Below, one piece after another: positions 26,987 to 59,076 of a stretch of DNA of 64,000 nt. Location: the IMG/VR virus record IMGVR_UViG_3300031972_001405, positions 23,425 to 87,424 of that record; one strand, written 5' to 3'. Each line of letters opens with the position of its first letter. Position 1 is the stretch's first letter. Source of the DNA: a virus. Under the pieces are notes generated by a model. That model made no database searches and was not told the DNA's origin. It saw only the letters and a program-made list of their open reading frames with translations. A program made the translations under genes and the position numbers.

Positions 26987-27398
26987 TGTCCATCTCCTTG
27001 AGCATTTTTTGTAAGTCTGCTGTTGATCCGACAAATAGTGCATTAGTAACGTTAGTTGGACCAGTTACCTTGTTATCATCATCTAAGTCTTTCACTTTCT
27101 TTTGTAAATCCATCAGTTTGTCTGTAGCATCAGACACATTTTTAATTAACTGACCAGCAACTTCATATGCTCTAGGCATCTCACTCTCACCTGCTAGTTC
27201 AAGAATACCATTGATAGCTTCTTGACCTTTTTCTATAATTGAATATAGATTGCCTCTAGTGTAATCATAATCTTTTTTAATGTGGTCAACATTATTTAAG
27301 TGCTTTTCGATTTTCACATCGACGTTCACTTTAGGTTCTGCTGGCATGATGTCAGCAGTAACGTCAAATGCATCACTCAAAGAATCAAAATCTGCCAT
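26952..27398 (-). CDS. gp16: Terminase small subunit
   Basis: DYDYTRGNLY, PRAYEVAGQLIK, NALFVGSTADLQKML. Confidence 0.95.
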   Translation of the reverse strand: MADFDSLSDAFDVTADIMPAEPKVNVDVKIEKHLNNVDHIKKDYDYTRGNLYSIIEKGQEAINGILELAGESEMPRAYEVAGQLIKNVSDATDKLMDLQKKVKDLDDDNKVTGPTNVTNALFVGSTADLQKMLKEMDNGRKGGKGSET

Positions 27399-28432
27399 CA
27401 GATGTCACCTTCCTGAGTAGAATCTTTGAAATCCTGGAAGTATGATATTGACTCATTGAATCCGAAGTCATCTCCAATTTCAATAAGAGCATCGTCAGCA
27501 GTAGTAAGAACATTGACCGTTGCTCCATTGACATGTTCAGCAGCGATAGTTCCTTCATATCCTCTCTTAACGACTAATTGATTGTTATCGATCTTCTCGA
27601 TATACATCATCTCACTATCAACTACAAATCTACCATAGGCAGACAAGGAGGATGCATCGTTGACTGTGATATATCTTTCTTCCGCAGAAAGATCTTCTGC
27701 GATAGATGTAGTGGCATCATTATCATAATCTTGAGTAGCTCTTGGTGTAACAGTATATCTGACTTCTCTTGGACCTCTTGGTGCAATTGTGGTGACATCC
27801 ACTGTTGCAGATTTGATAAGACCTGTGTCGCGACCAACAGGACCGAACAGATATGTCTTAGCAGAAAATCTAACAGTATAGATCAATGCTCTTCTTGTGG
27901 TAAAATCTCCCTCGTATTGATCGTCCATGGAAATGTTTTCCAAAATAATTGGAACATCTCTCTTTTCTCCAATCTCATCAACTAGATTAATTGTAATATT
28001 ATATTGTGGTTGAAAGAATGGTAAGATTTGTTCAATAATCTCAAGAGCATCTTCATTCGTCTTCGACATAATGCTCAGTTCAAAATTCATACTATATGGA
28101 ACAGGCATGAATGTCTTACGTGCCTTAGTTTTTTCCGATAACTTTTGGCTGATAAATGTTTGAGTTGATGTGGTTTTTCTTGCTGGGTCATATGTCATTC
28201 CATTCATCTCAAAAGACATTCTCGGAAGAGATAGAGATGTCGGAGCATTAATATTGGGATTTTGATCTAACCTTGCTAAGAACTTTTGTGTAGGTCCATA
28301 TGCCAAAGGCACCTTCAGGATACTGATTACATCTCCCGAGGAATTGGTCTTCCTAATTGTAATATTGTTAAAGAGAGTTCCGAAACCGATTACGGTTTTT
28401 CTAAAGATCTCGTGATAAAAATATTCAAACAT
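27398..28432 (-). CDS. gp15: Tail sheath stabilizer/terminator
   Basis: YFYHEIFRKTVIGFGTLFNNI, VPLAYGP.QKFLARL, QILPFFQP. Confidence 0.95.
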   Translation of the reverse strand: MFEYFYHEIFRKTVIGFGTLFNNITIRKTNSSGDVISILKVPLAYGPTQKFLARLDQNPNINAPTSLSLPRMSFEMNGMTYDPARKTTSTQTFISQKLSEKTKARKTFMPVPYSMNFELSIMSKTNEDALEIIEQILPFFQPQYNITINLVDEIGEKRDVPIILENISMDDQYEGDFTTRRALIYTVRFSAKTYLFGPVGRDTGLIKSATVDVTTIAPRGPREVRYTVTPRATQDYDNDATTSIAEDLSAEERYITVNDASSLSAYGRFVVDSEMMYIEKIDNNQLVVKRGYEGTIAAEHVNGATVNVLTTADDALIEIGDDFGFNESISYFQDFKDSTQEGDI

Positions 28433-28466
28433 GGATCTAAATTGCCTTGTGTACTATTTAACTGTT

Positions 28467-29840
28467 TTAAACTTCACCAAATGGGTTTCTTTCTGTGAAG
28501 TCCAAGAGGTTATCTGCTTCAGTTTGTATGTTATCGTTATCAGCAAATGCTAGAGTAAGATCGTCAGAGTTTTGATCTCTCATCGAATATACAGAACCAG
28601 ACTCATTTCCAGTGATAGATTCGCCAACAATAAATGAACCATTGACAATAGAAACTGAAAGTTCTTTTGTGGATGCATTCCAAGTTTTAACTCTTCCAGT
28701 TGTTCCAGAAGTTCCACCAGTGACAATTTCATTGAAGATATAACTTCCAGAACCAACCAGTGGCGGCGCAGAGATTGTAATTATTGGAGATGTTGTGTAT
28801 CCAATACCAGCATTAGAAAGTCTGATTCCACTAATAGTTCCAGCAGCACTGACGATTGCAGTTCCGATTGCAGTACTTCCAGAAAGAGGTGCAGAGAAGG
28901 TAATAGTCGGTGGACTATCTGCAGAGTATGCAGCACCACCACTGGAGACAGTAATAATTCCAACACCACCAGTAGTGGCAAGTCCCACAGTAACAGCGAC
29001 TCCAGTTCCACCACCGCTTTGGAATACAACAGATGGAGGAACAGTATATCCAGCTCCAGGATTAGTTAACTCAACTCTATCAATTGACATTGAAGTAGAG
29101 AGTCCAGACCGATACGTTGTAATTCCAATCGCACTTGCTGTGATACCAGTAGATGTGCTGATAGCAATGGTTGGTGTGCTTGTAAATCCATATCCACTAT
29201 CAAGAATGGTGATGTTTCTGATACCACCATTGGTGAAAGTTGCACTAGCGGTAGCAGTTGATCCAATACCAAATAGTGACAGAGTTTGAATATAACCAGT
29301 CTCTACCAAATTATTATCAATCTCTTCAATATTAGTATCCAAGACCTCATCTTGTGGTCTGAACAGTTCACACTTCAGAGTGTATACATATGTCTTTTGA
29401 AGTTGGTAGAAAGGATTTTCATGCTCTACAAACTTAATCTCAAACAATCTATCTCCGAGTGGGAAATAAATTAGATCACCTTCTTTTGGTCTTGACGACA
29501 ATCTAATATTACTCTGGTTCCTAATAAGTGGAGAGATATACTCTTCAAACCGTTCTCTTGAAACTGTCAGAGTTAAATCATCTGAATTCTCAATACCAAA
29601 TTTAGAAAGCAGAGTTCCTTGACCCTCATATCCATCGTAGTTTTCTACATATGCTTCAATGGGATAAGCATCAGTAAACTGAGATTCAATAACCTCTCTA
29701 ATTACGGTATTGGTTGTAATATATTTTCTGGGAATATAATGCACCTCAACACCATACATCCGCAGTTGTTCATTGACCAACTGCTGAATGAGACTTTGTT
29801 CGCCTCTTGTTCCTTGCTTGAAAAAAGGATTTAAAGCCAT
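28467..29840 (-). CDS. gp14: Neck protein
   Basis: RPKEGDLIYFP, FEIKFVEHENPFYQL, C-terminal DFTERNPFG; contains GxGYT-repeat insertions. Confidence 0.93.
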   Translation of the reverse strand: MALNPFFKQGTRGEQSLIQQLVNEQLRMYGVEVHYIPRKYITTNTVIREVIESQFTDAYPIEAYVENYDGYEGQGTLLSKFGIENSDDLTLTVSRERFEEYISPLIRNQSNIRLSSRPKEGDLIYFPLGDRLFEIKFVEHENPFYQLQKTYVYTLKCELFRPQDEVLDTNIEEIDNNLVETGYIQTLSLFGIGSTATASATFTNGGIRNITILDSGYGFTSTPTIAISTSTGITASAIGITTYRSGLSTSMSIDRVELTNPGAGYTVPPSVVFQSGGGTGVAVTVGLATTGGVGIITVSSGGAAYSADSPPTITFSAPLSGSTAIGTAIVSAAGTISGIRLSNAGIGYTTSPIITISAPPLVGSGSYIFNEIVTGGTSGTTGRVKTWNASTKELSVSIVNGSFIVGESITGNESGSVYSMRDQNSDDLTLAFADNDNIQTEADNLLDFTERNPFGEV

Positions 29841-30679
29841 TACCCGATCATGTCAAGTGGTGGAAGTTCGTAAGTATTAGACATCTTTTCCATCAAAGTG
29901 TCTAATTCTTTTTGTGCGTCATCATAGATCTGTCTTCCATTCAGTTCAATGCCTCCTGGTAGTTTTACTCCATTGAACTTAATTAAATTCTGACCCCACT
30001 GTTTTTTGATCAGAATAGTTAGATATTGCTTTAAGAATGAATCATTATAAACTCTTGTGAAAGTATTTGGATCTAACAATCTCCAACAATCAATAATCAT
30101 GTAATCTCCAGCACTAACTTCACTCCAATCCATATCAATGTAAAGTCTGTCTTGTCTTTGATTAAATCTGAAATGCTTCAACGGATTAAGTAAAAAGTCA
30201 ATATCAGATAACTTTTGCTGAACCATCGAGAAGTTCAACAAATCAAGAGAGTCAAAGAAGTAAATATCATTTAGAAATAATTGATACTTTACACTAAACA
30301 TCGATCCTGAAATGGTGGATGAAGCTTGTAATCTGAATACTTTGTTTACTCCTAAAACAGAAGATGGGACTGGAATATAATTACTGTTCTCTTCAAAAAC
30401 AAAAGATGTACTTTCACCAACAGTTTGAGTTACGGTCTCTGTTGTTACACCCACTGGCGATGTAGATCTTGCCCTTCCTCGATTAATATCATCCTGAGTA
30501 AATTGATACTTCATATATGTCTGAATCACACCATCAAAATGTCTCTCATGAAAATATTGAACTGCATCATCAACTAGGTCAGAAATCTGTTCGTCAGCGA
30601 CGTTGATTTCCAACACTGGAGCGCCTAATCTCCTTAGACAATAGTCAATTAGTTGTTGTCTAGAAGCGGGTTGAGACAT
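29840..30679 (-). CDS. gp13: Neck protein
   Basis: YCLRRLGAPVLEINV, KKQWGQNLIKF.GVKLPGG..LNG. Confidence 0.95.
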   Translation of the reverse strand: MSQPASRQQLIDYCLRRLGAPVLEINVADEQISDLVDDAVQYFHERHFDGVIQTYMKYQFTQDDINRGRARSTSPVGVTTETVTQTVGESTSFVFEENSNYIPVPSSVLGVNKVFRLQASSTISGSMFSVKYQLFLNDIYFFDSLDLLNFSMVQQKLSDIDFLLNPLKHFRFNQRQDRLYIDMDWSEVSAGDYMIIDCWRLLDPNTFTRVYNDSFLKQYLTILIKKQWGQNLIKFNGVKLPGGIELNGRQIYDDAQKELDTLMEKMSNTYELPPLDMIG

Positions 30680-31359: not shown

Positions 31360-34300
31360 TTACACCAGAGCAATGATCTTCAAACCAGTGAGTCTTGGGG
31401 GATCTGCCTGATTTCTAGAAGCACACATAACCTTAATCTTAAACTGAGTGAATGGTGCTTGGTTGTCAATACTAAACTTCATCGCTTGGAATTCATCTTT
31501 TTCAGATCTAGGAACACGCTTGTCGGGCCGACCATCATTCCTCGCTTCGTCAATAATATTGCCCTTAGAATCAATATTCTTGTAACCAGGGAACAGAGTA
31601 TAAAGACCGTTGTCTTCATCACCAGGACTGATAATGTTATATGCCATTCTGATGTCTGCTCTTGATGGGAAGTATGCATCAAGTCTTACTTGAAGTGCAG
31701 TAGCAGAAGTTGGAAGATCAAGAACTTTGCTCACATAGATGAACTCATGATCATCGCGACCTTTTCCTTTGAAGACACGCTTATTACCAGCGTATCTACC
31801 GTTATAAGGTTTGTTGATGATGTTGTCAGTTATGACAACAGATGCTCTGTCAAGATCAATGACTGGAGACAGTTTGTCATCAGCACTTTCTAAAGTCACA
31901 TCCATTGTGAATGATCTCTTTCCTGGGAATTCGGTTGAGTCAAGTTTACGAACCTCATTTAGTCTAGAAGGAATCATTCTCAGAGTATCTAACTCGTTGA
32001 TAGATCCCCATTCAACTGGTTGATATCCAGCATCTTGGAATGAATTTTCATTGCCATCGATACTAGTTGCGGTAACAGATCTCATTCTTCCACTAATCTT
32101 AGTATTTGGGAATACAAGGTTATGGAAATTCGGAGTAATGGCAGAGTATGTCCAGTTCTGAGTCAGAACTCCATCTTCGCCGCCACATCTCTTACCTTTT
32201 CTAAAAGTAAGTCTTGGTAGACTAGCATTTCCACTTCTATCAACACCCTTCTTAGTAAGATCAATATCAATATCAAACCAGTTGTGATCTGATCTCATTT
32301 TAGTATTCTCACGCTGACTTCTTGAATATTGATTCGGAATGAAATCATGCAGAGTGTTAATTCTTCTCAGAGAGATGCCGTCAAGCTCATACCTGTTGAT
32401 TTCTTCACCTGCTTCATGATAGTCTCTTCTAGTATAGTCCTTACCACGAGCAGTAATACCAACTAGTTTTTGACCATCAACACCAGTGTATTCAATAACT
32501 TCATCACCAATGATTGCATAACCTGGATTGGTTGTGCTAACTCCAACTCTCTCAAATGTATTGAAGATGCCCATATTACCTTGTACGGTAATATCTTCAG
32601 TACCAATCGAGTCAACATCAAATTTGATCTTTCTTGGTCTACTATCAGGATCAAGTCCGCGTAGTCTCACTTGATTGTCTCTATCATACATGCCATGATT
32701 TCTGGCACGTATCCTGATAGTTTCTCCACCCCAGTATCTGTAATTGTTGAATGTGGAAACAGCAATTCCAGTAGCAAGAGCACTGGTGATACCAGTGGGA
32801 GTTCTGAATGAAAGAGAGGAAGCAGAACCAGTTGCACCCGTTTCTGGGATGCCATAGACATCTCCAACTCTAAGAACAATACCAGAACCAATTCCAGTTA
32901 CTCTACCTAAGAAGTCTCTACCAATCTGTCCATCACCAAGACCGCCGATAGAAGAAATACCAACTAGTTCATTTCTCTGCCAGTCTCTACCACCAGAAGT
33001 AATATCAATATTGGTAATAGAACCATCATTAACAGTCACATCACCGACAAGTTGTTCTCCTTGCCTATGTCTAATTCCCCATGCGTTAAGAGTCGTGAAT
33101 GCAACACCAACAAAAGTAGCAACACCTGATGTTGGGGTGAAACCAACACCTGCCTTGACAATGGTGACGGCAGCATCGCTTTCGATTACACCAGACTCAA
33201 CTCTATGGATAACCGCTCTGAAGTTTGGATTTGCAGGTTGTTTAATAACAACCCCCCTCTTCAAGAAACCAGTTTCAATTCCAGATAGAGGTTGTGATAG
33301 AGCAATCTTACCTGCTGCATGAAGAGTTCTGAGAGGATTCTTATCGAGAGAAACAATTCCTCTATTACCTCTGTTCAATGGAGTGTTATAGAACGTAGCA
33401 GTTCTAGGATTACTAGTATCAAACTGAGCTCTGTATAGAGTCCACTTCAGATCTTCAAGTCTGCTTGGTGTCCAGAATCCAGCTGCCTGTGATCTGAAGA
33501 GTTGACCTGTCAGTGGTTGTTGTGAAACCTTACGACGGTTTACACGACGGATCGCTCTGAGATAAACTCTTCTTCTACGTCCAGTACCTCTCTTCTCAAG
33601 TCTCAGTCTAAGACCTCTTCTGGTCTCAACAAGACGCCCACGGACACGGAACTCAGAACCTCTTGCAAGGTCTCTTCTACCAGCATCTTCAACAACTCTT
33701 GCTGTGACACCGCCAGGTCCGCGACGATTGCGAACTCTTCTGAGTCTATCTTGGAATTCTCCAGATTCCTGAACAGCAGCAGCACGAGAAGCACTAAGTC
33801 TTCTTCTTTCGCGCTTATTCAGTCTAGTGTAATCAACATAACCAGCAGTTCTTACGAATATAGACCTGCCTCTACGATCTCTGAGAACTTCATCATCTCT
33901 AATGGTAACGTCGATCTCACCCATTCTGGAGATCCAAACTCTATATCTTCTGGAGTCAGTATCGAGAACAAGAGCGTACTCTTTACCACCTTCCAGATAT
34001 ACTGGTTCTTCAAAGTCAACTTCAGTTTTATTTCTAGCATAACGAGATCTACGAATGTCATCTGGTGCAATCTCAACCCTTGTTCCAGGAACAATGGTAT
34101 CAGTTGGAATGCCATTCTCACAAGTGCGAAGTTCAGCAGTAACACTGAACCTCTTGTCCTTTCTCTGGAAGTAGAGATCGAACTTTGTTACAAAGATTCC
34201 TGGTTGCTCATCAATAGTAAATGTTTGTGCCAAAGGATCTCTGAGATAACCTCTCTTGATAAGTCTTCTACTGATAGCAAGTCTTCTTCTTTCCGCTCTA

Positions 34301-37300
34301 ATAGCAGAACGATAAAGAACTTGACCCGCTCTTCTTGCAATTCTTCGGGCAAGAATTCTATTTCTAATTTTTGCCTTTTGTCCTCTGCCACCGACTCCAA
34401 ATGTGTATGGGTTAGCAGCATTACCAGTCAGGAGGTTAATCTGTCTTCTAAGTTGCCTTCTAGCAATCTTGTATTGAGCTCTATGTCTACCAACGAAGAT
34501 TCCATTATACCATCTTGCACGGTGTCTAATGAAAGGATACAGACTAGTTCCTACTGGAGTAACCTTGTTCACTGCACCATCACACAGAACAGTATGTACT
34601 GCCTCTGTTCTTGGTCTCCTTCTCCACCTATTTCTTCTATTAGAAGAAAGTCTAAACTCAACTAGACCAGACTTGAACTTTCTGGGTTTCCATCTGGGGT
34701 TGGGAATAAAGACACTACAATCAATTACGCCGCCTCTTCTGACCTTGAGTCTTCTATGAACAACTTTGGCGATAGCACCAGAAGATTGTCCACGAAGAAC
34801 CATTCCAGCAGAAATATATCCATAGTATCTTGGATTTCTACTGCTTGCCAGAGTTCCAAGATCCACGTTCAGGAAACGAGAAGAAGAAGTATATCTCTTA
34901 GGAATAATTCTATTTCTTCCATAACCAGTTCTTCTGTAAGTAAGACCCAGTTTATACTTAGTTCCTCTGAAATTGGGATTGCGTCTCCATCTACGTGTTT
35001 GACCTGATCTGATGTTGCCATATCTATGTCTAGGATGTGCCACTCTGAACACAATCTTTGCATTTCTTCTAGGCCAACCCCACCGTCTTCTACGACGTGG
35101 CATGTAACCAACGACTCTTTCGCCAACTCTGAATACACCTCTTCTCATTCTGATTCTGAGGAGTTTCGGTGTTGTGAAACCAGTCATCTGTTTATCATTG
35201 AGATAGCACCAGACTCTTGCTCTAGGTCTCATACGAGATCCTCTCAAGCGGAAGTTTCTGCTTTGGATATATCTCGTACCTGATCCCGACGCCAAGTACT
35301 TATCCTCAATATTACTGAGGTTTCTTGCGACAGCACCTCGTAATGCTTTTCTTGCACGGAATGATGCGATTCCAGTTCTGATGATAGCTCTTTTACGTGC
35401 TCTACGAATTTGTTTTTTAGTAATTCTTCCAAGCCCACCTCTTCTTTCGTTCCACCACTTTGGAACTCTCTTTCTATAACCCTTTCTACCACCAATTGCT
35501 CTGATTCTTCTACCAAATCTCAAACGGCGACCAATCAGTTCAGTCAACCAAGATCCCCAAATAATTTCATTATAACCATACTGAGCACCAATTCCAATGG
35601 AGAGTCTCATTGCTCTGAAGTCACCATAGAGATCAGCATTTCTAACCTTAAATCTCTTTGTAGTAACCCAATTGTCGGTTCTAGGCCATACTCTCAATCT
35701 ACCAAACCAGTATGTAATCCTGAATGGATTAATTCTGACAGTTCTAGTAGCGAAAGGATTGCTCATATACTCAACTTCTTGATAGTCGAGTGTAAGAACA
35801 TCGCCAGTTCTTCTCAGACCCTCTGGAACATCTCCATCATCACTATCATCAAAGTCAACAACCTTGATATCATTCTTATCTGCTTCATCATCACTATCAT
35901 CCTCATCCAAGATAATGCCATCTTGTGACAACTGAAGGGGAAGAATTCTGGTGAAATGTTTTGGTCTCAATTCTCCTTCTTCTTTATCAATAGATGCTTT
36001 GAATTCTGGATCTTCCTGATCAGCAGTCGTGAAGTCTTGGAAAGAGTCTACAATGACACCAGCTTTTGGTCTTTCCACTTTAGGCACATCGACACCACCA
36101 CCGCCGCCAGCTGGATCATCTGCGTCTGCATTAATTAGTGCAGTGATTTTAATATTCATTGCATCCTGCTCTTCCATGAGCAGTTTGTAATAATACTCAA
36201 GATTTTTAATTCTCTTCTCAAGTTCAGCGATATCCTTCATCGTATAACGCTTATGCTCAGAAAGAGTGATCTTAGCGTCATCTACATCAAATAGATATGC
36301 TGGAAGACCAATGGCAGCAATTTCCATTGATCCGTCATCAAGACCCTCTGGCAATTCTGGATCTTCAGCAGACTGACCCTTAACAACTTGGAAGTCACCA
36401 TCTGGGGTAAGATACAATCTATCAATTCTAGACAGATAATAATCGTATGTAACTTGAATCTGCTCATCAGAAACAAGAATATTTGGAGCAGAAAGACCAG
36501 CAACAGCAAAGTTTCTGCTCTTCTGATCTAGAGGAGATAGAGTACTATTGAGATCATATGCACCAACTCTAGGACGATAATCAATAATATCACATTGTCT
36601 TACATCCTGAGTAAATCCAATTTCTTCTTTATAGAATTCTTCTGCATAACTGGAAGCAGTAATTAACTCTCCAGAATCGCCTTCTTGAATATCAAAAGTG
36701 GAGAAAATAATTGTGAGACGATTATCTGGAATGGACATTCCTCTCTGAGCCTGACCACCAGTTGCCTCAGCATCATCCGATCTAGATTCAATTCTCTCAA
36801 GAACTCCATAATTCATATAATCTCTTCTACGACCTTGATCAACTGAGTATTGATCTTTGATGTCTTTAACACCTTTAGTGAAGTCTTTGACTGCACCACG
36901 TACATCAGACTTGCTTCCTCTGATTTGCTCTCCATCACGGAGTTCTCCATCAGAGAGCATAATCACTCTAATCTCAGTTGAACTATCAATTCTAACAACA
37001 AGAGCAACTTCTTCACTAGTTTCGCCAAATAATTCTTCTCCAACGATTAGATCGCTTGTATCACTATTAGGTCCATTTAGACTATCGAATTCTAGTTTGG
37101 GTAGATCAGGATCATCTGCGTCGTTTGATTCCAAAACAGCATATACATCAACAATATCTGGTTTCAAAAGGCAGATTCTATCATCCTGAATTCTAGTTCC
37201 ATATGCATAGTTTGGATCATAAATCAAACCATCATTCAAAGTAGTGCTACCAATACCAGATGAAGGATTGCTAGATCTATTGATTGTGAGAATATTAACT

Positions 37301-50200: not shown

Positions 50201-53200
50201 TCTCCGACAATTACAGGTCGTAGTTGAGCTCTGCTTCCAACATCTAAGGTAATTAACGGTTGCTTCTCGTAATTGGAAATATCAGAGTTTCCGTAACCAG
50301 TTCCGCCAGAGATAATATTTACTTTCTCAATAGAACCAATAACAATTGGTTGAATAATTGCTGGGAACAATGACTCAGCATTAGTTGTTCCAATTCCAAT
50401 GTTTTGTTGATCTGTGAGAAGAAGTTTTGAAGTATCAATTCCAACATCACCATCAATCTCAACTTTAATATCAGGATACTTAAAGATATGAGTTCCTAAA
50501 CCAACACTCTTAATATCTGCATAATCTCTATTGAGGTAATTTGCATTTGTGGTAGTTGTTCCAATTCCAGCAGCTGCTAGTCTAAAACTATTTTCATCAA
50601 GTTTTAAAACGTAATACTGTTGAGTTGTTGAAGTATCCAGTCCAGAGATAGGAGTATCGAGATACTTATACTCAATTATCTCTCCATCCTCAAATCCATG
50701 ATCAATGTAACTAACAATGTCTGCAGATGTATTGATACCTGACGGCTGAACATGAATATCATTAGTTGCATATCCTTCACCTGGATCAACAATATCAATT
50801 CTAGCAATTACACTTCTAGGAAGATCTGCTCTGAAAGTTTGTCTACCCTGACCAAAATCAGTGATGTTTACCGTGTTAACACCAGAAATAGCATCGTCAC
50901 TATTGTTGTGAAACTTGATAGTGTATAAATCTGGAGTGCTGACAAAGAATCCACTATTTTCGTCAATATCGTAAATTCTAATTACATCACCTTCAGTAGA
51001 ACCAATACCAATAGCAGTTTGATCATTGTTATCAACAAAGACTAGTTCTCCATTAATAAATCCATGATATGTTGAGAAAGCAACAGTATTTGACGTTGTG
51101 CTGATTGTTCCAGCACCTTTATTGACAATAATCGTTCTCTCATGAATTTTTTCTTTGAGCAGGGTCTCTGCTCTTGCGCCTTCTCCGTTACCACCAGAAA
51201 TAGTCACCGTTGGTGGATTGATGTAACTAAAACCACCATCTACGACTTGAATTTGTGAGAAAGAACCTCTAACAGTTAAGGTAGCAGTTGCTCCAGTTCC
51301 AACGCTATCGTTAATTACGAATACTGGAGGATTTACAACATCATATCCTCTTCCACCACTAATTACATCAACAGTTTCAACTTCTCCATAATAGATAAAA
51401 TTCTCGGACTTATAGTTCAGAACTTCAACACCATTTACCAAAATACCAGTTCTTGTATCAGGATTAGTAGTAAATTCTAATGCCTCATTATCAGTGGCAG
51501 GTGGAATTGCTCTAATGATCTTTTGAGCATCTAAAGGTTTAAGATAATGTCTGGATGGATGTAAATATTGACTTGTAGCAATTCCACTGACATCTTGGAA
51601 GACACCAGCAGCAATATCAGCCCTACTATTTGCAAGTTTTATATTATCAACATCAATCACATGAACATAGTATTCTCTCTCATTCAAATCTCCAAGATTG
51701 TTAATTATAACGTCTTCAATAGATTCATTAAATTCTTCAATGATATTATCATCATCTACTTCACTAGAATCGATGACTTCTTTATCTGGAACGTAGTTTA
51801 CTGATTCCCCACTGATGAATCCATGATTGGGAATTGTTATAACATCGCCAACGTAAATTTTTGGTGGAATTTGTACAGATCTATCAGAAAGCTCTAGTTT
51901 TGTTCTATAACTCGGAATACTATTAGAAACAATATAGACATTGTTATCAGAATCTTTGTATGAATTAATAACATCCGTGTAAAACTTGTTTGCTACAGGG
52001 AAGTTTACAGAATCAGCAGTTTTTGGTTTTCTACGAGCTTCAAACGTATAATTTAAACCACGAGTATTCTGTAAAGATGTTAAATCGTTGAGTTCATCTA
52101 CGACAAAGTTAAATCTACTAGAAAGATCTACAACTCTACCAGAAGATACTTGACCAAGTTCAATATTGATTATTTCAACTCTATCATCAAGATCGAGTGC
52201 ATGTTCCTCAAAACTAACAAATTCAAATTTGCCAATATCTAAATTATTAGAACTTTTTATTTTAAATCTGTTGTGAGTATTGTAAATTAGTGATTCACTT
52301 ACACTATCACTAAAATCTTCGCCCAGAGAACTTACATAGACTCTATCATCCTCCTCATAATTTGAAACTTCACTTTCATTAAAGGATAACTCATTGAGGA
52401 CACCAGTAATGCCAAATGTAATAATTTCATTATTAGGAGTTATGGAATAGATATTGGTATTCTCAATAATTGTCTCGCCAATAGAAATTTCGTCAAGAAC
52501 TCCGTTACAATTTAAAAATTGATTGACTGTAGTATTTGTATAAGTTACAACTCCACTTGTTCCATTGTTGAAAGGAACAAATATCTCTCCTGCAGTAGAA
52601 AAACCAACAGTAGAGTCAACGTTAACAAATGTACCACCTGCAGCAACATTATCAATTGCTTTTGACTTTCCTGTAACTTTAAACTCACCAAAAAGCGTTC
52701 CAAAAATTTCAGTATCTCTGCTGAAATCATAATCAATACCAACCTTTACATAATCTACTCCTTCTCTTCTAAGTTTCTCAATTTTTGTAATAGAACCGTA
52801 AGCCTTATTAACATTTGTATTAAAAGTGCTTGTATCTTGATATAATGTTTGTCCAATAAGATCTTCTACGTCACCTTCAGATTCAATGACCTCCAAGACC
52901 ATTTCAAGTTGTCTTCTGTAAGTTGCATCAGACAGTTTGAAGACATTATCTTGTGGTTTTTTAATTTCTACGTCAACACCAAACAAAGCACGAAAGAGAA
53001 TTTCAAAAGAACGATCAGTTCCTTTTGAGGTATAAAAATCTTTTGCTTGTTTGATGAAAACTTCTTGATTCAGTCCATCTGCAAGATCTCTTCCTTCAAA
53101 ACCAGGAGAGAATTGTGATTTTAATTTTTCAAGAAATATTTTTTTATACTCTGATGTTAAATTGAATACAACAGTTCTATTAATGTGCTCATCTTCTTCA

Positions 53201-53616
53201 GATTTCTCAAAAACTAACTGATCTGCAGTACTTGGATCTCTATATGAGGTAATTCCAGAAAATCCTCTAACACAGTTAGTGAAAGATGTTTCTGTTTTGT
53301 GAACATATGTAATAATCTCATCATCAATCTTTAACAGACCATATGTTTTTGGAAATCCTTCTGTAGAATCAACAAAAATTGTTTCATCACCAAACTCAAC
53401 GTCTGCACTGAGCAGTGTCGTGCTAACAATAGAACTATATGTTCCTACTTTAACATATTGGTCAATATTTTGACTGATATCAAGAGTACCACCCTCAATT
53501 TCTTGAGAGGTGTAATAAGTTTCTAGAAACTCTGTGAATAATGGAGATTCTAATTTAATATTGGCAGGTATCTGATCACCAACAACAGTTTTTGTTTGAA
53601 CTCTAGTTTCGATCAT
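41269..53616 (-). CDS. gp7: Baseplate wedge initiator, 4115 aa
   Basis: FIKQAKDFYTSKGT.RSF.ILFR.LFG, HDNFYYQNFSY.IKS, HALGFKKF; lies between gp6 and gp8. Confidence 0.88.
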   Translation of the reverse strand: MIETRVQTKTVVGDQIPANIKLESPLFTEFLETYYTSQEIEGGTLDISQNIDQYVKVGTYSSIVSTTLLSADVEFGDETIFVDSTEGFPKTYGLLKIDDEIITYVHKTETSFTNCVRGFSGITSYRDPSTADQLVFEKSEEDEHINRTVVFNLTSEYKKIFLEKLKSQFSPGFEGRDLADGLNQEVFIKQAKDFYTSKGTDRSFEILFRALFGVDVEIKKPQDNVFKLSDATYRRQLEMVLEVIESEGDVEDLIGQTLYQDTSTFNTNVNKAYGSITKIEKLRREGVDYVKVGIDYDFSRDTEIFGTLFGEFKVTGKSKAIDNVAAGGTFVNVDSTVGFSTAGEIFVPFNNGTSGVVTYTNTTVNQFLNCNGVLDEISIGETIIENTNIYSITPNNEIITFGITGVLNELSFNESEVSNYEEDDRVYVSSLGEDFSDSVSESLIYNTHNRFKIKSSNNLDIGKFEFVSFEEHALDLDDRVEIINIELGQVSSGRVVDLSSRFNFVVDELNDLTSLQNTRGLNYTFEARRKPKTADSVNFPVANKFYTDVINSYKDSDNNVYIVSNSIPSYRTKLELSDRSVQIPPKIYVGDVITIPNHGFISGESVNYVPDKEVIDSSEVDDDNIIEEFNESIEDVIINNLGDLNEREYYVHVIDVDNIKLANSRADIAAGVFQDVSGIATSQYLHPSRHYLKPLDAQKIIRAIPPATDNEALEFTTNPDTRTGILVNGVEVLNYKSENFIYYGEVETVDVISGGRGYDVVNPPVFVINDSVGTGATATLTVRGSFSQIQVVDGGFSYINPPTVTISGGNGEGARAETLLKEKIHERTIIVNKGAGTISTTSNTVAFSTYHGFINGELVFVDNNDQTAIGIGSTEGDVIRIYDIDENSGFFVSTPDLYTIKFHNNSDDAISGVNTVNITDFGQGRQTFRADLPRSVIARIDIVDPGEGYATNDIHVQPSGINTSADIVSYIDHGFEDGEIIEYKYLDTPISGLDTSTTQQYYVLKLDENSFRLAAAGIGTTTTNANYLNRDYADIKSVGLGTHIFKYPDIKVEIDGDVGIDTSKLLLTDQQNIGIGTTNAESLFPAIIQPIVIGSIEKVNIISGGTGYGNSDISNYEKQPLITLDVGSRAQLRPVIVGERLQSVIVTNGGTGYNSPPILTVQGDGDYAEVTAVVGGGKIIDVIVNNGGVGFTTAKTFVEIEERGIEAKFRANIGQWNINNVARFENNFGTDDSILAAPSRREFGSQYVHLYAPRNLRRVLYALNINGTKNYGSNDLNFSFIEEKATRHSPIIGWAYDGNPIYGPYGYSNPQGGTIKRMRSGYRRTTSDSRPSVDKYPLGYFVNDYVWSNAGDLDEHNGRFCKTPDFPQGRYCYFATIGNRISNDGPFKGFFPPRFPYLIGDSYRSKPLDFNLLSSSNTQDIDLNESEFIRNSRPYKINSYYGSNEYIINPTNDERQYVNVERATTGKVESFTIVSAGSSYRVGDRLEVDNDNNLGDDAQAVVSWLDGRSITSIAASTYTLPDVEVLVKAGTGAAVGFCTIPHGLRNNDSVVISGLSTDVVPAVAGRHTIGINTTSWRLVSAASTPSITGLTTYLSISGDLTPTGIDENDIIGIAYTTSVGINSFEKFKVLNIEPQHSRVRVQRQSEGTIGVAHSFFAKIISFPRQFTFNVSGISSGFVTQSNFELYFNPQDQVGVGTSIGVGIVSSIPSDVGIGTTTVYGEIPTGSIFISNHGLRTGQKLKYLTNGGIGVSVSNTGVGGTFTLPDGGFVYAINVGKNAIGLSTTKVAIGTDTLVVGVGSTAHQLRFLNVGSGVTHSFQSVYDRIGEHVIKGNLNVSDFEVYTDIFHHLGIEDQVQLDVLPGITSSIFVQFNNYNRRIVFNRVGLSTSNIDVNNNLIIINNHGYRTGDKIIWTKESASTVPSVISDNGMYYVVKDDDNRFRITRTKRESELDRPLYINFSDAGSGNQLISLINPPINQILGNRISFATTDSSLAFSQGNRIFPAFSIKFFTDKNYENEFFSAGDSVNFPIITRGRIGDPSTASSTTLYTNRDFPEKLFYKFEPAYTNRIPSRKGRKQRRFDSLNFVEDDSVLDFNTINFDSSGFNGSYSVVGIASTSFKVNAFRDLEGAGYEESQSIFSYITNSKYTLGPIRDIKLKSGGFSYNRLPGITSIASSEGIGAIIKPNSKSIGKIRGQKLIDVGWGYPSDSTLKPKGNIPELLSVDSLFTIKSLGIQTGGRNYVITPTEFVVFDGSSGEFIPEIQLKFSLTGSSIGNVRILSNSTRLSNANPTIIPLNNSNGVGIKTVEYNSNERIVTLKFDVGFTTSNTFPFKLGDRVLVENVGIASTGSGYNSSDYNYKRFEVIGVDENFGGIGSIAYKLPRDVTYPGLYVTSRSYGRAIPPQDLPKFNAELIPTQFKVGETIVTNSGKSGKVDYWDSVSKIIKVQSQDNFSKKEKVRGLSSKAQAIVRTKVDYDSDFVVDAVSSPRAEWIDQRGFLSENTQRLHDNFYYQNFSYVIKSEIEYDRWSDAVSSLNHALGFKKFGDMQIISESEESTATVSTPEIADVEVSLSLENSAQTYCKYDFDLGVEKTISFGPRNLSNEVIFNNRIITDYVESIGNRVLAIDNISTLFSNTPRQTPFSVTDDFLIGDTRSARYYAFIRDTRYSDEVQAMVFDFIHDDVRGYLAQYALTSSVLDLGAFDFGLSASTGQIQFYPTKFAENNYEIFGFSQQLQDFIPAVNNLNVSGITTIGDIAEFVHSTRRIGAGTTDGDIIVGIATTMFSAVKVFVSTSEKSGESQYETNQISLMHDGTDVYELEFGRINNLSPQKYTIDSGIGTFSSNISNGNMNLVYHPDQTKDIVVNILETRLKIGVSTVGYSTQAIDQIEFGAGSVQIPAGSGISTIHSFPSNYKGAYYVMRIKDKTFNHIEFEEALAITDSGEEYLTQFGKMVSVDSVSGLGTVSLIRNDDLNRIDLSFDPDDQTHEYEVQVLQHGVVSQTGEGNPELDYGTARFVSLNGTYTGTLADVKRSFGLFNGGRPIFVRTFNGAENTIVDVDNDSIVIPDHFYVTGEKLTYDPTGVGNTASIGIVTTTISGVSTDILPSEVFVVKVDDRSIRVAGSATDALAPTPNYLNFTSVGIGTSHTFLTSNQNSRVLLTLDNNIQSPIVATGVTNVLIENMNLTQSQMKLSGITSIFGADLIRIDDEIVRVNSVGVGSTNIFLVTRAWMGTTNQVHGTGSTIEKLIGDFNIVGNTLNFVEAPIGQTPQEVPDDPNQTDYSGIQTSSTFTGRSFIRSGVTGSGDHTYQDNYIFDSLTRSFDGVTRQFTLTSETENVSGISTNNAAIVVNQIFQKPGILNDYTLEESSGITSITFSGYGASVGYDPNVSAIPVGGVIAAVGSTRGFGYQPLISAGGTALVSGFGTVYSISIGNSGSGYRSGIQTFYNSDFVEVTVNVGVRTTDLDTAEVLSIGTATLAGGSISTVTFNSTYNAGTAYTFTNPPIVIIDDAQSYSNLPLIYSSESTGRNIGTNATATIVVGQGSSIIEFEITNNGYGYDVDEVLTVDTSSIAGVNTDPSAGNNFREFQVTIENVESDSFTGWHFGQLEGLDNIEDLFNGTTQVFNLSKDDVPFSIIAKRGSLIDVRQTLIIFINDILQEPNAAYIFNGGSQVRFTEAPIPGDTCRILFYKGTGAVDVVNRDIEETVKVGDSIQLLNRPTIDRVRIFDQDQRIVTGIQTVDTINTTPYSGVGISTDNRFERPITWCKQQQDLFVNGSYVTKDRALYKSRIQPAAHLLKNVGIGNTTIVYVDSVHTIFDDYNENLAGEKQDIFIVEQDAKVSAAATAIISGFGTVLSLDITDGGFGYVTAPSVSIAAAAGLGTTTRAQATSSITNGVVTSVTMTSPGTGYTFQQLPPILIEKDNLKRETFTSVEYQGDFGIVSGIGSASVGVATTGITFDLLISHGSVLRQSDVTGPSGITTISGITTGQYIVITGTSSTDITGFGYTSYDREGGRVAIGTIGLDNVYQVIDYTDVFGYAVGFGSGVGVGSTYFRRITVSVNTYDGVIGFGSSAMFGKFSWGAITNFTRPEEQAFIAHLDNGVTGLSTGPRIQRVEPLKSSNYLT

Positions 53617-55883
53617 TAGTAACCGCCGCCTCCGCCTGAAGAACCTGAACTTGAAGATGTAGCTGATGTGGATGATGTAGTAGTGTCACCAGATGTGACA
53701 TTATCATCAGACCTGTTGACAGTGCTAGTCAAAGTAACGCTAGCGTCTCTTTGAACAACTCTCTGTTGTGGTACATTTGTGACTGATGGCGCTGGTTGAG
53801 CATCCTTAGCCTTAGTGATGACTTTTGCGTTGTCTGAGTGCCTTGCACCAGTCATTAATGTACCGTTTGGCATAGTGTGGAATGGACCATAATATGGTTT
53901 TCCATTTACAAACCCAATATATGTATCTGAGGAGGAAGCAGTCACTAAAATAGCTCCTCTCACAATTTGATCAACATCATGATATGAAGAAATTGGTTTG
54001 AAATAACTTCCAGCAGCATCTTCTCCAGAAGAGATCCTATCTGGTATCATCGTTACCTCACTAGACTCTGTATCAAACAAAGTATAAAGATCTTGTTTTC
54101 CGATTACGTCATTTGATTCTGGAATTGCATCAAATTCAATAATTGGTTGATCTTCATTGACAATCGTTGATGTAATAATCATCGGATTGATTTTAATCTC
54201 TCCTGACAAGTAATCAATGGTGCCCATATCATCTCTCACAACCTGAGATTCATTAGCACTCTTTAGAGTGAAAAGAATCATCCTACCAATTGCATCAGTT
54301 TGGTCATCATCATCAATAGCACCTTGACCTGGAACATCTCCAAGATAACACCAACCTTCTACACCACTTACTTTGAATGCTGTAGATCTGACGTTGTAAC
54401 CAGTGTCACTATTAACTCTGATAGAGTTACCAAAGCATATCTCATAGTCTGCAGGAGCATTCTCTACAGGTCTCAAGTTCCTCCGCATTCTAATTAGAGC
54501 ATATGAACTTGTAACGGAAGGATCTGACTGATCAAGTGCCGCTAAGAATCTACTATACTTAAACCTACCAGCAAACTTGTTTAATTCCGTAGAATCTGCA
54601 TATTGCTCAAGTGCTTTCATCACATTTGTTTTAGATGTGCTTGTTCCACTAGATCTAGATGTGTTATAATAAGCTCCAACCTGTGCTTCAATATACAAAT
54701 ACTTTAGATCAGTAATAGTTGGAATAATTCCAGCAATTGAATAGTTTTTTAATTTACGTTGAATCTCAGACTTCAAGAAGTTAGAAATATAATTTGCATT
54801 CTTTGGTTTAATACTAATAAAGACCTTTCCATATTGTGGGGGGTCTAGATCTTCTCCACCATAAACGGAAACGGAATCTGTTTCTGGAAATAGCTCTGGA
54901 ATGACCGCAGCATAGTCATTTGCAGTAACGCAACGATTTTGAGCAGAATAATTTCTTGGAGCATATTTTCTAATCGAATCGATGGATTCAATATTATCTC
55001 CACCAAGAGATCTTTCTGATGAAGTAATTGCACTTACTCCAGATGTTACAACTCTATCACTATTATCTCTCAATCTACCAGCAAAGGTAAAATTATTAAC
55101 TCCATTACCATTCTTGCCATTTGTAATGATATAGGTTGCTTCTACAATATTTCCAGTTTCTAGAGCCGAACCAAAAATACCATCTCCAAAGAGAAGTTCA
55201 TATCTTTCATCTTCAATTTCTTGAATTAAGTACAGATCAGTGTTTTCTGTTGCATCAATAATAGATTCTACAAGATTAAACTTTTTACCAAAGTTTGATT
55301 GCTCATATTCTTTAACCACAACTCTCAAAGTTGAGGTATCAATGTTGGAATTAGGTAAAATGAACCTTTGTTCTGTTAATTGTGAATCATATTCAAAAGT
55401 TTTTGTAATAAAAGTACCTTCATAAACTTCTAAACCAACAAAAGTAGCAATTCCATCAACTACCTGTACTGTAACTGGTTCTGGAATCGAAAATACAAAG
55501 TTATTTCCACTAAAACTTTCAGAAATAGCAACAACACCTGCTTGAAGTGTTAATGTTAGTGGAACTACGCTTGCTCTTGTTATATCTACGCTAAAATTTA
55601 TGCTTACTTTTGACGCTCTTCTTGATCTTGGGACATATCCTATGTTTCTTGCTAAAGATACGACATTTTCTCTTAAAGTCGCACTATCAATAAATCCCTC
55701 ATTCGCCACCATGTTGGTGTTATATGAGTTAATGTAAGTATTGTATGCTAGAATGTCAATAAGAACCGAGAAATTAGATCCCTCAAAATCAAAATCAGTA
55801 AAATTACTGTTTGATCTAAGATAAGACTTAATCTGCTCTTTGATCTGATCAAAGTCTAGATTTGAAAACTTTGCTAGTGGCAT
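53616..55883 (-). CDS. gp6: Baseplate wedge subunit
   Basis: LDFDQIK, FTDFDFEGSN, LAYNTY, YSAQNRCVTANDY, PPQYGKVFISIKP. Confidence 0.95.
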   Translation of the reverse strand: MPLAKFSNLDFDQIKEQIKSYLRSNSNFTDFDFEGSNFSVLIDILAYNTYINSYNTNMVANEGFIDSATLRENVVSLARNIGYVPRSRRASKVSINFSVDITRASVVPLTLTLQAGVVAISESFSGNNFVFSIPEPVTVQVVDGIATFVGLEVYEGTFITKTFEYDSQLTEQRFILPNSNIDTSTLRVVVKEYEQSNFGKKFNLVESIIDATENTDLYLIQEIEDERYELLFGDGIFGSALETGNIVEATYIITNGKNGNGVNNFTFAGRLRDNSDRVVTSGVSAITSSERSLGGDNIESIDSIRKYAPRNYSAQNRCVTANDYAAVIPELFPETDSVSVYGGEDLDPPQYGKVFISIKPKNANYISNFLKSEIQRKLKNYSIAGIIPTITDLKYLYIEAQVGAYYNTSRSSGTSTSKTNVMKALEQYADSTELNKFAGRFKYSRFLAALDQSDPSVTSSYALIRMRRNLRPVENAPADYEICFGNSIRVNSDTGYNVRSTAFKVSGVEGWCYLGDVPGQGAIDDDDQTDAIGRMILFTLKSANESQVVRDDMGTIDYLSGEIKINPMIITSTIVNEDQPIIEFDAIPESNDVIGKQDLYTLFDTESSEVTMIPDRISSGEDAAGSYFKPISSYHDVDQIVRGAILVTASSSDTYIGFVNGKPYYGPFHTMPNGTLMTGARHSDNAKVITKAKDAQPAPSVTNVPQQRVVQRDASVTLTSTVNRSDDNVTSGDTTTSSTSATSSSSGSSGGGGGY

Positions 55884-56281
55884 TACCTTACTGACTTAGC
55901 GATAAATGAGAGATTCTGCAGACCGACATCCAGTCCAATAATTTTATACTCAATTACAAAGTCAATTGCATTAGCTTCAAAAGATGCTACAGCACGAATA
56001 TTTGTCACATCTACTCTAGGTTCATTTTTTTGGATCGCATCTTTGATTGATCCTTCATAAGAAGCAACAATTCGGGGATCAACTACATCAAACATTGATC
56101 TTGCAATTACAGAACCAAAATTTGGTGTAAAGAATCTCTCCCCGAGTGCTGTTGAAGCAATATTACGAATAGATTTGGCAATTGCCGTCTCATCTTTCAA
56201 GACTAATAGGTCGTTGGTGATAGGATGTCTCCTAAACGACAACGAAATATCCTTAAATCCTCTTGAAATCCGATTAGGCAC
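55883..56281 (-). CDS. gp25: Baseplate wedge subunit (GPW/gp25 family)
   Basis: FKDISLSF..HP.TND, GERFF.P.FGS, EPRV; GTG start; CTAAATA box at 56307-56313. Confidence 0.9.
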   Translation of the reverse strand: MPNRISRGFKDISLSFRRHPITNDLLVLKDETAIAKSIRNIASTALGERFFTPNFGSVIARSMFDVVDPRIVASYEGSIKDAIQKNEPRVDVTNIRAVASFEANAIDFVIEYKIIGLDVGLQNLSFIAKSVR

Positions 56282-56494: not shown

Positions 56495-57175
56495 TTAGGT
56501 TAGATTAGAATTTTTTTTGGGTTTTCCATCCCTTTCCGACTCTGTTTCCCAAAAATATTCATCAGTATGGCCCAATCTACCCCATTCAATACCATTTTCA
56601 ACTTGAAAGTATTCGGTAGAAACCTTAAAGTCAGGAATTTTTGGTGTTTCGGGTGTCAGACTGTTATCATAGATCCTACATCTGTTGTTTGGGTACAGAG
56701 CAAACTGCCCATTCTCCAATTCGATGAGGTTAAATGACTTGTGTTCTTCTGGAGTTTCACTTGTAGAGTAGTCAACTGTATCTGGATCACTGTGATAGTT
56801 GTCTAGAGTGCATTCATACTGCCCTCTAAGCGTCCCGAAGTGCCTTGATCTTACTTCCCAGTCCATTGACGCAACGAACTGTTTACAGATGCTTACAACC
56901 CCATAATCCATACAGTTCCAGAACTGAAGATTTGGAAGATCTAAATCAGGAGCTGGTGTCTTTGGTTCTGAAACAAATGCAGATATCGGCAACTTATCAA
57001 ACATTGCCGCATATTCTGGTAAATACGTTTCAAAATAAAAAGCGCGTCCAGGTATCGATTTTGCCGATACCCAAACGCCCTCTACAAATTCACCAAACCC
57101 ATCTTTAAAATCTCGTAAGTATTCTTTACGAACCCAGACTTTACGTGCAGGAAGATTGGTGATCAAACGACTCAT
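56495..57175 (-). CDS. Conserved hypothetical cyanophage protein
   Basis: NLPARKVWVRKEYL, LQFWNC, EHKSFN, GQFALYPNNR. Confidence 0.8.
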   Translation of the reverse strand: MSRLITNLPARKVWVRKEYLRDFKDGFGEFVEGVWVSAKSIPGRAFYFETYLPEYAAMFDKLPISAFVSEPKTPAPDLDLPNLQFWNCMDYGVVSICKQFVASMDWEVRSRHFGTLRGQYECTLDNYHSDPDTVDYSTSETPEEHKSFNLIELENGQFALYPNNRCRIYDNSLTPETPKIPDFKVSTEYFQVENGIEWGRLGHTDEYFWETESERDGKPKKNSNLT

Positions 57176-57324: not shown

Positions 57325-57375
57325 CGAGTAAAGCGATTGATTTACTTGAATAGTATAGCACAGATCATATATGTG

Positions 57376-57594: not shown

Positions 57595-57617
57595 GATAGT
57601 AAATAAAAAAAGTGCTT

Positions 57618-57648
57618 AAAAAACCCCCGAGACACGAGACGCGGGGGG
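57618..57648 (-). terminator. Probable terminator after the glycosyltransferase-like gene
   Basis: CCCCC(G)...(C)GGGGG stem followed by T6. Confidence 0.65.
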
Positions 57649-57658
57649 TAATTAGTTA

Positions 57659-58432
57659 TTAGATGATACGAGTTTTTTCGTGACCGACGCGGATACGAGG
57701 ATCACACCAGATCTCATAACCCATTTCCTTGGCATCGAGACAGAATGATACATCCTCTCCACACATGTCCTGAACCTCTCCAGATTCAAACTGCTGCATC
57801 TTCGGAGCAAACCATGGATACTCCATGTTCTCAAAGACGCCTTTCTTAATCATGACCCAACCAAACCCAGTGTAATCAACTGTGAATGGCTTGCGACGTT
57901 TGCTGATTGATTCGAGATTTTCATGATTCATGACTCCACCATTCTTACGGAAGTCATCTTCTTCTAACCAGTGTGCAACAGATGTGGTATGACCATCTTC
58001 GGTACAATACCATCCAGCAACGATTTCTTTCTCATCACCTTCAGCAGGAAACGCAAGATCGCACAACTGCCAAAACTTACCTGTGTCAAATACAATGTCA
58101 CTATCAATCCACAACTGATAGTCATATTCGAGTTTACCATCCCAGGGAATCTGCTTCGGTCCACGTAGTACATTAGCACCCAAAACCTTGCAACGTGCAA
58201 AGTTTACCATGGAAGAATAGTCCTGAGAGATCTGAATGCTCAGACCACTTTGTACCAAATCAAAACAGAGTTGTACAAAGTTCTTCATGAAAATGTAAGA
58301 ACATCCACGTCCAGGAAGACAGAATACAATCTGCTTCCCACGCATACGCTCTTTGATAGCATCGATATCCCACTCTTCACCTGTCTTCTTTACAGGAGGG
58401 GTCTTTGCTTTTACTGTAAATCCTTTAGCCAT
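57659..58432 (-). CDS. Glycosyltransferase-like protein (GT-A fold)
   Basis: DxD motif in YDYQLWIDSDIVF, VDYTGFG, GEDVSFC, VGHEK. Confidence 0.75.
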   Translation of the reverse strand: MAKGFTVKAKTPPVKKTGEEWDIDAIKERMRGKQIVFCLPGRGCSYIFMKNFVQLCFDLVQSGLSIQISQDYSSMVNFARCKVLGANVLRGPKQIPWDGKLEYDYQLWIDSDIVFDTGKFWQLCDLAFPAEGDEKEIVAGWYCTEDGHTTSVAHWLEEDDFRKNGGVMNHENLESISKRRKPFTVDYTGFGWVMIKKGVFENMEYPWFAPKMQQFESGEVQDMCGEDVSFCLDAKEMGYEIWCDPRIRVGHEKTRII

Positions 58433-58490
58433 AAGATGTTCAAAAATGTTTTAACAAGCTTGTCAGTTCATTGGAATGATGAACACTTCA

Positions 58491-58519
58491 ATGATACTCC
58501 ATTATTTAGTCCTTGTCAA
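58491..58519 (-). promoter_or_regulatory. Sigma70-type promoter with a nested late box
   Basis: TTGACA-N17-TATCAT, with CTAAATA at 58503-58509 inside the spacer. Confidence 0.65.
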
Positions 58520-58679
58520 GCAATATCTTTTCATATGTTAGATCATTCTCATTGTAATCTGTCTTCATTAATCCTACCATTCCTTTCAATACTGTCCAAG
58601 TATGCTTGAACTCATTCTCAGGAACATTCTTATACAAACAAGTTTTCTTTGCATAGATGTTGTAACTATACTCTGCCAT
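58506..58679 (-). CDS. Hypothetical protein
   Basis: Start ATG 58679 with a GGAGG Shine-Dalgarno; LKGMVGLMKTDY. Confidence 0.7.
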   Translation of the reverse strand: MAEYSYNIYAKKTCLYKNVPENEFKHTWTVLKGMVGLMKTDYNENDLTYEKILLDKD

Positions 58680-59076
58680 AATCGTCCTCCAGACGTTCGA
58701 TGTCTTCTTCAATACACATATCACCATACTGTACTTCAACGATCAATATACCGTCTCTGCCTCCCCTTAGACGGTGAATCTCTTCAATACCAATATGGTG
58801 GACATCACTCACAGTTGTTTCTTTACCACCTGGACAATCACTGAGATAGATTGTACCATTACCCTTGACTACAACCCACTGCTCATTTCGATGAAAATGT
58901 CTTTGTAGTGAAATTGATTTACCAGGATCTACGAATAACCTCTTTACTTTATATGTGGCATTACTATAAAGGTTCTCGTACCAACCCCATGGACGGGAAA
59001 TTTTTTGGGGCAATAATTTTTCCATGTCGCCAATGAACGGTTTGTCTAGGTCAGTCATGATATGATATCCATTCAC
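58666..59076 (-). CDS. Mannose-6-phosphate isomerase type II-like cupin
   Basis: RPWGWY, SLQRHFHRNEQWVVV.G, HRL, EVQYG...EEDIERLEDDYGR. CATAAATA late box at 59080-59087. Confidence 0.88.
   Translation of the reverse strand: MNGYHIMTDLDKPFIGDMEKLLPQKISRPWGWYENLYSNATYKVKRLFVDPGKSISLQRHFHRNEQWVVVKGNGTIYLSDCPGGKETTVSDVHHIGIEEIHRLRGGRDGILIVEVQYGDMCIEEDIERLEDDYGRV

Follow-up and report, generated by a model that had tools for sequence, protein, structure and literature searches.

Does a short motif that recurs across the baseplate and neck proteins of a T4-like cyanophage mark a site of virion glycosylation, or is it part of the fold of those proteins? The question is raised by a 64,000-nucleotide stretch of viral DNA (the window; positions 23,425–87,424 of IMG/VR record IMGVR_UViG_3300031972_001405). 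A sequence-only reading of this DNA had noticed the motif G-[IVLF]-x-[ST] (hereafter G-Φ-x-[ST]) in apparently unrelated virion proteins, close to late-promoter sugar enzymes, and had proposed an O-glycosylation sequon. PHROG and Pfam profiles identify the window as the structural module of a T4-like cyanomyovirus, with all long open reading frames (ORFs), and all features located below, on the minus strand; its closest isolates are Synechococcus and Prochlorococcus myoviruses, for example S-SM2. Our analysis indicates that the motif may well be a clade-specific structural loop or turn element, a protein-level signature of one T4-like cyanophage clade. The computational tests neither refuted nor supported its reading as a glycosylation sequon, which we consider unlikely.

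Expected motif counts were obtained from 1000 shuffles of each protein. The motif was most abundant in the gp7-like giant baseplate wedge protein (4115 amino acids (aa), 41269–53616; phrog_2885, E = 0; Pfam Baseplate_wedge and YHYH), where more than 40 copies had been counted by eye. The full count was 71, against 20.5 ± 4.4 expected (z = 11.5). Shuffling inside 40-aa windows raised the expectation only to 22.7, and a first-order Markov model to 24.3. Reversed and permuted versions of the motif occurred at chance level, and G-Φ-x-[charged] was depleted. Composition, local composition and dipeptide bias were thereby ruled out, and the objection that G/S/T/I/V content might account for the motif did not hold. 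A tighter form, G-Φ-[GSTAN]-[ST]-[ST], gave z = 17 in gp7. Codons at the motif were as mixed as in the rest of the gene, which indicates a protein-level signal, with selection acting on the protein, and rules out a DNA-level repeat or recombination motif.

Enrichment was confined to the virion module. Counted over one 87-kb contig, virion-module ORFs held 119 motifs against 45.2 expected, while the 48 other ORFs held 20 against 20.8, so that the predicted difference between virion and other proteins was upheld against shuffled controls. The 2772-aa DUF4815 virion protein (31360–39678; Pfam DUF4815, phrog_358) contained 22 base motifs against 7.7 expected (z = 5.4). Tight-motif z scores of 6, 7.2 and 7.8 were obtained for this protein, for the gp8 baseplate wedge protein (39683–41230; phrog_438, E = 1e-163; three tight motifs) and for the 457-aa gp14 neck protein (28467–29840; phrog_460), confirming the recurrence proposed for all three. 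The same proposal failed for gp13 (29840–30679; 1 against 0.6) and gp23 (2 against 1.6), which were at chance level, and there was no enrichment beyond chance in gp6 (53616–55883) or gp15 (27398–28432); gp13, gp6 and gp15 were assigned by PHROG and Pfam profiles. For the protein that the sequence-only reading had labelled a gp18-like sheath protein (16806–19097), recurrence was marginal, with 7 motifs against 2.8 (z = 2.6) and zero tight motifs. A further carrier lies outside the window, in a 191-aa late ORF (contig 2755–3330, minus strand, ~20.1 kb to the left of window position 1; phrog_3086, function unknown). This small protein has 8 motifs against 1.1 expected (z = 6.9) and a weak match to a 'head protein' PHROG, and the ORF is directly preceded by TATAAATA, a T4-type late promoter.

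The profile of the 71 gp7 sites reads [S/V]-G-[I>V,F,L]-[G/S/T]-[T>S]-[T/S], in which the glycine and Φ are fixed and T exceeds S by 2:1. Alternating hydrophobic residues on both sides give a strand-turn-strand pattern, and the flanks are otherwise nearly free of information. Across 145 diverged gp7 orthologous segments, G, Φ and T were conserved at most sites, with T far above S; the column counts were, for instance, G111/T109 at residues 1589/1592 and G113/T94 at 1780/1783. A motif-dense stretch of gp7, residues 1530–1900 (47917–49029; 15 motifs), was modelled with AlphaFold2 from 66 diverged homologues, at a mean predicted local distance difference test (pLDDT) score of 81.9. In this model, G, Φ, x and S/T were all in coil at 12 of the 15 sites and position −1 was in a strand at 6 of the 15. 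Several sites fell in a conserved Gly-rich loop of lower model confidence. Most of the modelled gp7 motifs thus occupy loops or the ends of strands within small β-domains, and the model did not show the burial in β cores that could have spoken against an exposed modification site.

One such domain, a small six-stranded β-barrel at residues ~1572–1664 (48625–48903), superposed in a VIA-align wide search on the JBD30 baseplate protein 8rk3_o with Z = 13.2 and a root-mean-square deviation of 1.4 over 79 residues, on the phage VP1 capsid protein 9in6_M with Z = 11.6, and on the phage Chi tail tip protein 8vjh_A with Z = 10.8. On the model, gp7 appears to be an array of small β-domains like those of JBD30 (8rk3), Chi (8vjh) and VP1 (9in6), although sequence identity between the gp7 barrel and these domains is only 11–18%. 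A Foldseek search of the gp7 model against the PDB gave no match at E ≤ 0.001, and the gp7 sequence had no usable match among PDB chains. The corresponding AlphaFold model of gp14, built from 25 close homologues, was unusable (pLDDT 37).

The main carriers are less independent than had been supposed. Residues 3795–3904 of gp7 match the gp14 family profile and residues 1130–1199 the gp8 family profile (PHROG), and an insert in gp14 matches gp7-type families in PHROG cross-matches and blastp. By sequence comparison, homologous modules are thus common to gp7, gp8 and the gp14 insert. The claim of unrelated carriers did stand for the 2772-aa protein, whose motif-rich parts, like those of the 191-aa protein, had no detectable similarity to gp7. 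In gp14, the T4 gp14 structures 9mkb and 9lu4 match residues 3–160 only (E = 2e-26), and residues ~160–457 are without counterpart in T4 gp14. An alignment of 25 homologues placed the insert, ~200 aa long, at about residues 176–400 (28641–29315); it consists of repeated 'G-x-G-Y ... P-x-V-x-I' modules and holds all 6 gp14 motifs. A single homologous repeat position does not account for the motif, as 'H-G-Φ' domain starts and 'G-x-G-Y' modules explain only part of the 71 gp7 sites, with variable offsets.

The proposed link to glycosylation involves a 257-aa candidate glycosyltransferase (GT) encoded at 57659–58432. The structural regions of 17 phages were compared, and each whole record was checked for this gene. 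The ratio of observed to expected motifs was 1.28–2.81 in the 9 GT-positive phages and 0.66–1.00 in the 8 GT-negative phages, a complete separation. More widely, the GT-like gene was found in 105 phage records and a motif-rich gp7 segment in 45, essentially the same isolates. In a gp8 tree, however, all GT-positive phages fell on one side of a 100/100 branch. Because they all belong to one clade, the association of motif and GT amounts to a single evolutionary event, and the co-variation, perfect as it is, does not serve as independent evidence. The clade includes S-SM2, P-SSM2, S-CAM9, ACG-2014f and S-SKS1 and matches the published 'cluster A' (PMC9602691). The 191-aa family is confined to it, and its orthologues are motif-rich too.

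The only independent lineages with the GT family are S-TIM5 and the uncultured 735-kb phage LR756501.1, and the motif was enriched in neither. In S-TIM5 (GT identity 54%), no ORF of ≥250 aa exceeded z = 3; in LR756501.1 (GT identity 39%), 403 ORFs gave a ratio of 0.83, and none was significant after correction for multiple testing. Within the clade, gp7 enrichment was weaker in the GT-positive phages ACG-2014f and S-CAM7, whose gp14 proteins contain 1 and 0 motifs, respectively. The giant proteins of GT-negative phages, equally rich in G, S and T, gave observed/expected ratios of 0.36–0.82. In GT-negative S-RIM2, ACG-2014d, P-RSM4 and S-RIM8, the gene at the gp7 position encodes a 6400–6800-aa protein that shares only its first ~570 residues and residues ~1090–1550 with the window gp7; G-Φ-x-[ST] is under-represented in these proteins (observed/expected 0.47–0.81).

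Comparison of orthologous sites revealed how the motif differs between lineages. Two of the three gp8 sites were kept in S-SM2 and none of the three in five GT-negative orthologues. For the 2772-aa protein, 7 of 22 sites were kept in S-SM2 and 0–1 of 22 in five GT-negative phages of similar overall identity. At two of the three gp8 sites, the GT-negative orthologues retain a Φ-G-x-T or G-G-T turn, and a simpler G-x-T turn was often found at the same place in GT-negative orthologues of both gp8 and the 2772-aa protein. Enrichment was not general among orthologues of the 2772-aa protein, with 10–16 motifs against 9–11 expected in GT-positive phages and 6–16 against 8–10 in GT-negative phages.

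The 257-aa protein itself belongs to phrog_1574 (E = 8e-118, function unknown). It has a D-S-D at residues 110–112 and a weak match to a glycosyltransferase PHROG (E = 1e-5), with no Pfam match even at E = 1 and no PDB sequence match. Glycosyltransferase is the name given to its ESM Atlas neighbours, all of them viral; in one cluster, 14% of members carry PF00535. On this sequence evidence, it is a candidate GT-A-like glycosyltransferase. In published annotation, its homologues appear as 'glycosyltransferase', with cell-wall or DNA modification put forward as a role (PMC12801897).

A late TAAATA box had been reported for both this gene and a nearby cupin gene, and the report was correct for the cupin only. 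Upstream of the GT-like gene, TAAATA lies inside the spacer of a σ70-type promoter, TTGACA-17-TATCAT (58491–58519; 11/12 consensus match), and is not conserved in orthologues. Comparable σ70-type promoters precede the GT orthologues of P-SSM2, S-SM2, DSL-LC03, S-SKS1 and ACG-2014f, while a NATAAATA box was present in none of nine GT upstream regions (the window and eight orthologues). A terminator-like hairpin with a T-run follows just 3′ of the gene (57625–57639). Judged by its promoter motifs, the GT-like gene looks like an early-type, self-contained unit of promoter, ORF and terminator.

In the clade, the GT is usually found 3–4 kb upstream of gp25-gp6-gp7 (gp25 at 55883–56281 in the window, by PHROG and Pfam profiles). 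In the window, the GT-like gene and the cupin gene are both located upstream of gp25. In S-CAM7 (KU686213.1), it lies at 184617–185381, ~110 kb from the baseplate genes at 71625–84569. In two records the gene looks interrupted. The GT homologue of Synechococcus phage B3 (122246–123127) matches in two pieces within one open frame, with ~36 extra residues between them, at a place where the B23 record annotates an HNH endonuclease; in S-SKS1 (143926–144680) the GT is split over two frames, and gp7 is fragmented too. The GT and gp7 breaks in these phages suggest frameshifts or sequencing errors.

The remaining sugar genes were sporadic. The cupin (136 aa, 58666–59076) consists only of a type II mannose-6-phosphate isomerase domain (Pfam PF01050; 86.4 bits, cut-off 23.6, E = 2e-24) and has CATAAATA, a T4-type late promoter, upstream. 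Of 10 other phages tested, 9 lacked it, and a single weak match was found elsewhere in S-SM2; this sporadic occurrence among relatives means that it is not tied to the motif. The cupin corresponds to the published cyanophage mannose-6-phosphate isomerases, which likewise consist of the isomerase domain alone; the S-SCSM1 gene has been treated as one of carbon metabolism (PMC9602691). The nucleotide-sugar dehydrogenase placed at 2549 proved to be a real gene, encoding a 256-aa UDP-glucose/GDP-mannose dehydrogenase-like protein (2549–3319; Pfam PF03721 and PF00984) with the N-terminal and central domains and without the C-terminal domain. It was absent from all 10 other cyanophages tested. Near-absence from other motif-bearing phages rules out the cupin and dehydrogenase as a conserved cassette; of the three sugar genes, the GT alone follows the clade.

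Several lines of evidence lead us to favour a structural role. The glycine and the hydrophobic residue are invariant at a strand-to-loop transition, with T preferred over S; G-x-T turns occur in GT-negative orthologues, and the main carriers share modules. Every independent test of the GT link failed, and the remaining sugar genes occur only sporadically. The GT is flanked by an early-type promoter and a terminator of its own, and the motif-bearing phages form one clade. If this reading is correct, the motif would mark the transition from a β-strand to a loop or tight turn in small β-domains on baseplate and neck proteins, the host domains being β-barrel insertion domains and 'G-x-G-Y' modules. 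The glycine would permit the turn and the hydrophobic residue would pack back against the core of the domain, with the Thr/Ser hydroxyl capping the backbone and beginning the next strand. The motif would have spread among gp7, gp8 and gp14 as domains were duplicated and modules exchanged, and it would also recur in further β-rich virion proteins of these phages. The GT-A-like gene, independently transcribed, early-type and inherited with the clade, would most likely act on another substrate. We infer both this structural role and an absence of modification.

A number of observations, however, weigh against a purely structural role. Between phages, the gp14 insert keeps its number of motifs while their positions shift. 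The same scaffold occurs without the full motif in GT-negative orthologues, so the fold does not demand it. Motif Ser/Thr residues were kept better than other gp7 Ser/Thr (0.76 against 0.45 in S-SM2), and the motif Gly was only slightly better conserved than other gp7 Gly. Two enriched carriers, the 2772-aa and 191-aa proteins, are without detectable gp7 homology, and the motif, between near-uninformative flanks, occurs in several domain contexts, not at a single homologous position. As a set, such features are those expected of a site recognised by a trans-acting factor. A loop element with another function would accommodate many of them. It could be a repeated contact site for host surface glycans or adjacent virion subunits, or a recognition site for an assembly chaperone or for a non-sugar modification restricted to this clade. 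The several fold contexts, the non-homologous carriers, the turnover at constant number and the lineage specificity are all consistent with this, as is the location of the motif in outer baseplate and neck decoration domains, whose nearest solved relatives are phage decoration or insertion domains. Against such an element, a hydrophobic residue and a glycine point to packing more readily than to binding, no candidate partner emerged, and a structural element fits the present data equally well; we regard it as fairly unlikely.

If the motif were an O-glycosylation sequon, exposed Thr/Ser residues in the G-Φ-x-T loops of baseplate and neck proteins would receive a sugar from a phage transferase in the cytoplasm. 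The enzyme could be the 257-aa GT-A-like protein or another of the many cluster A GTs, many more being encoded by S-SCSM1 and S-SCSM2R (PMC9602691, PMC12801897), and the attached sugar could protect or stabilise the particle or modulate adsorption. Such a site fits an enrichment that is ordered, lies at the protein level and is restricted to virion proteins, and it fits the loop location in the gp7 model, the enrichment of non-homologous proteins and the extra conservation of the motif Ser/Thr. Position turnover with number kept in gp14, lineage-specific gain at orthologous sites, the several fold contexts, and the perfect co-occurrence with a GT usually close to gp25-gp6-gp7 also point in this direction. 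Set against these, the co-occurrence is one clade-level event, and the GT family is present without the motif in two independent lineages. The GT lies between a σ70 promoter of early type and a separate terminator, lacks a late box, and in S-CAM7 is remote from the baseplate genes. The GT-positive phages ACG-2014f and S-CAM7 have few or no gp14 motifs and weak gp7 enrichment, and the cupin and dehydrogenase are outside any conserved cassette. To our knowledge, a fixed glycine and hydrophobic residue are also unlike most known bacterial O-glycosylation sites, which counts against a sequon. On balance, a sequon appears improbable, and it is correspondingly doubtful that cluster A phages glycosylate or otherwise modify, with their own transferase, dozens of G-Φ-x-T threonines on baseplate, neck and small late proteins. 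The remaining alternative, that the motif simply follows from G/S/T/I/V-rich composition, biased dipeptides or a repeat in the DNA, could appeal to the richness of the carriers in G, S and T. It is effectively refuted by z scores above 11 in both global and 40-aa-window shuffles, by chance-level permuted motifs, by a Markov expectation of 24 against 71, by mixed codons, and by the low ratios (0.36–0.82) of the G/S/T-rich giants of GT-negative phages.

Comparison with known systems places these readings in context. Mycobacteriophages reportedly O-glycosylate their virion proteins with phage-encoded glycosyltransferases, a modification said to have been demonstrated by mass spectrometry on capsid and tail-tube proteins. 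Here too, a phage GT lies near structural genes, and the idea is one of cytoplasmic Ser/Thr glycosylation of virion proteins. Unlike that system, the one considered here is a proposal from sequence, in which baseplate and neck proteins would be modified at G-Φ-x-T loops by a transferase whose gene has an early-type promoter. Flagellins and autotransporter adhesins undergo cytoplasmic O-glycosylation by dedicated transferases. If the motif were a sequon, the likeness would lie in a soluble transferase acting before assembly on many exposed-turn Ser/Thr of a repetitive, β-rich surface protein; no homology of the 257-aa protein to those enzymes was detected (no Pfam or PDB sequence match). In T-even gp38 adhesins, conserved glycine-rich motifs with a structural role delimit variable segments. 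G-Φ-x-[ST] is likewise a short Gly-containing motif present many times in a phage protein, but the gp38 motifs are conserved in DNA and are recombination points, whereas the codons here are not conserved. A literature search found no description of the motif or of cyanophage virion glycosylation.

If its role is only structural, the motif would provide a sequence marker for one T4-like cyanophage clade and would also flag small β-domains in very large baseplate proteins without a solved structure. A role in modification would make it the first case of virion glycosylation defined by a sequon among marine cyanophages, and the tail apparatus of these abundant ocean viruses would then be coated with sugar at a definable sequon. 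This would bear on adsorption, on grazing and immune-like recognition, and on particle stability in the ocean, and it would supply a function for a conserved gene labelled just 'glycosyltransferase' or 'hypothetical'.

Some neighbouring genes also deserve mention. Beside gp25 and near the GT-like gene, a 226-aa protein (56495–57175; phrog_3704) is named 'PurM' in the S-SM2 and S-TIM5 records and 'ferredoxin' in PHROGs. It had no Pfam match, which makes both public names doubtful. The gene that the S-TIM5 record annotates as PurM, a possible counterpart, is 5.5 kb downstream of the GT. Outside the window, a 152-aa protein (contig 11345–11803, minus strand) starts with G-G-F-D-P-x-H-x-G-H, a start typical of NMNAT/cytidylyltransferase-type nucleotidyltransferases. 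NMNAT has been detected in the S-SCSM1 virion proteome (PMC9602691).

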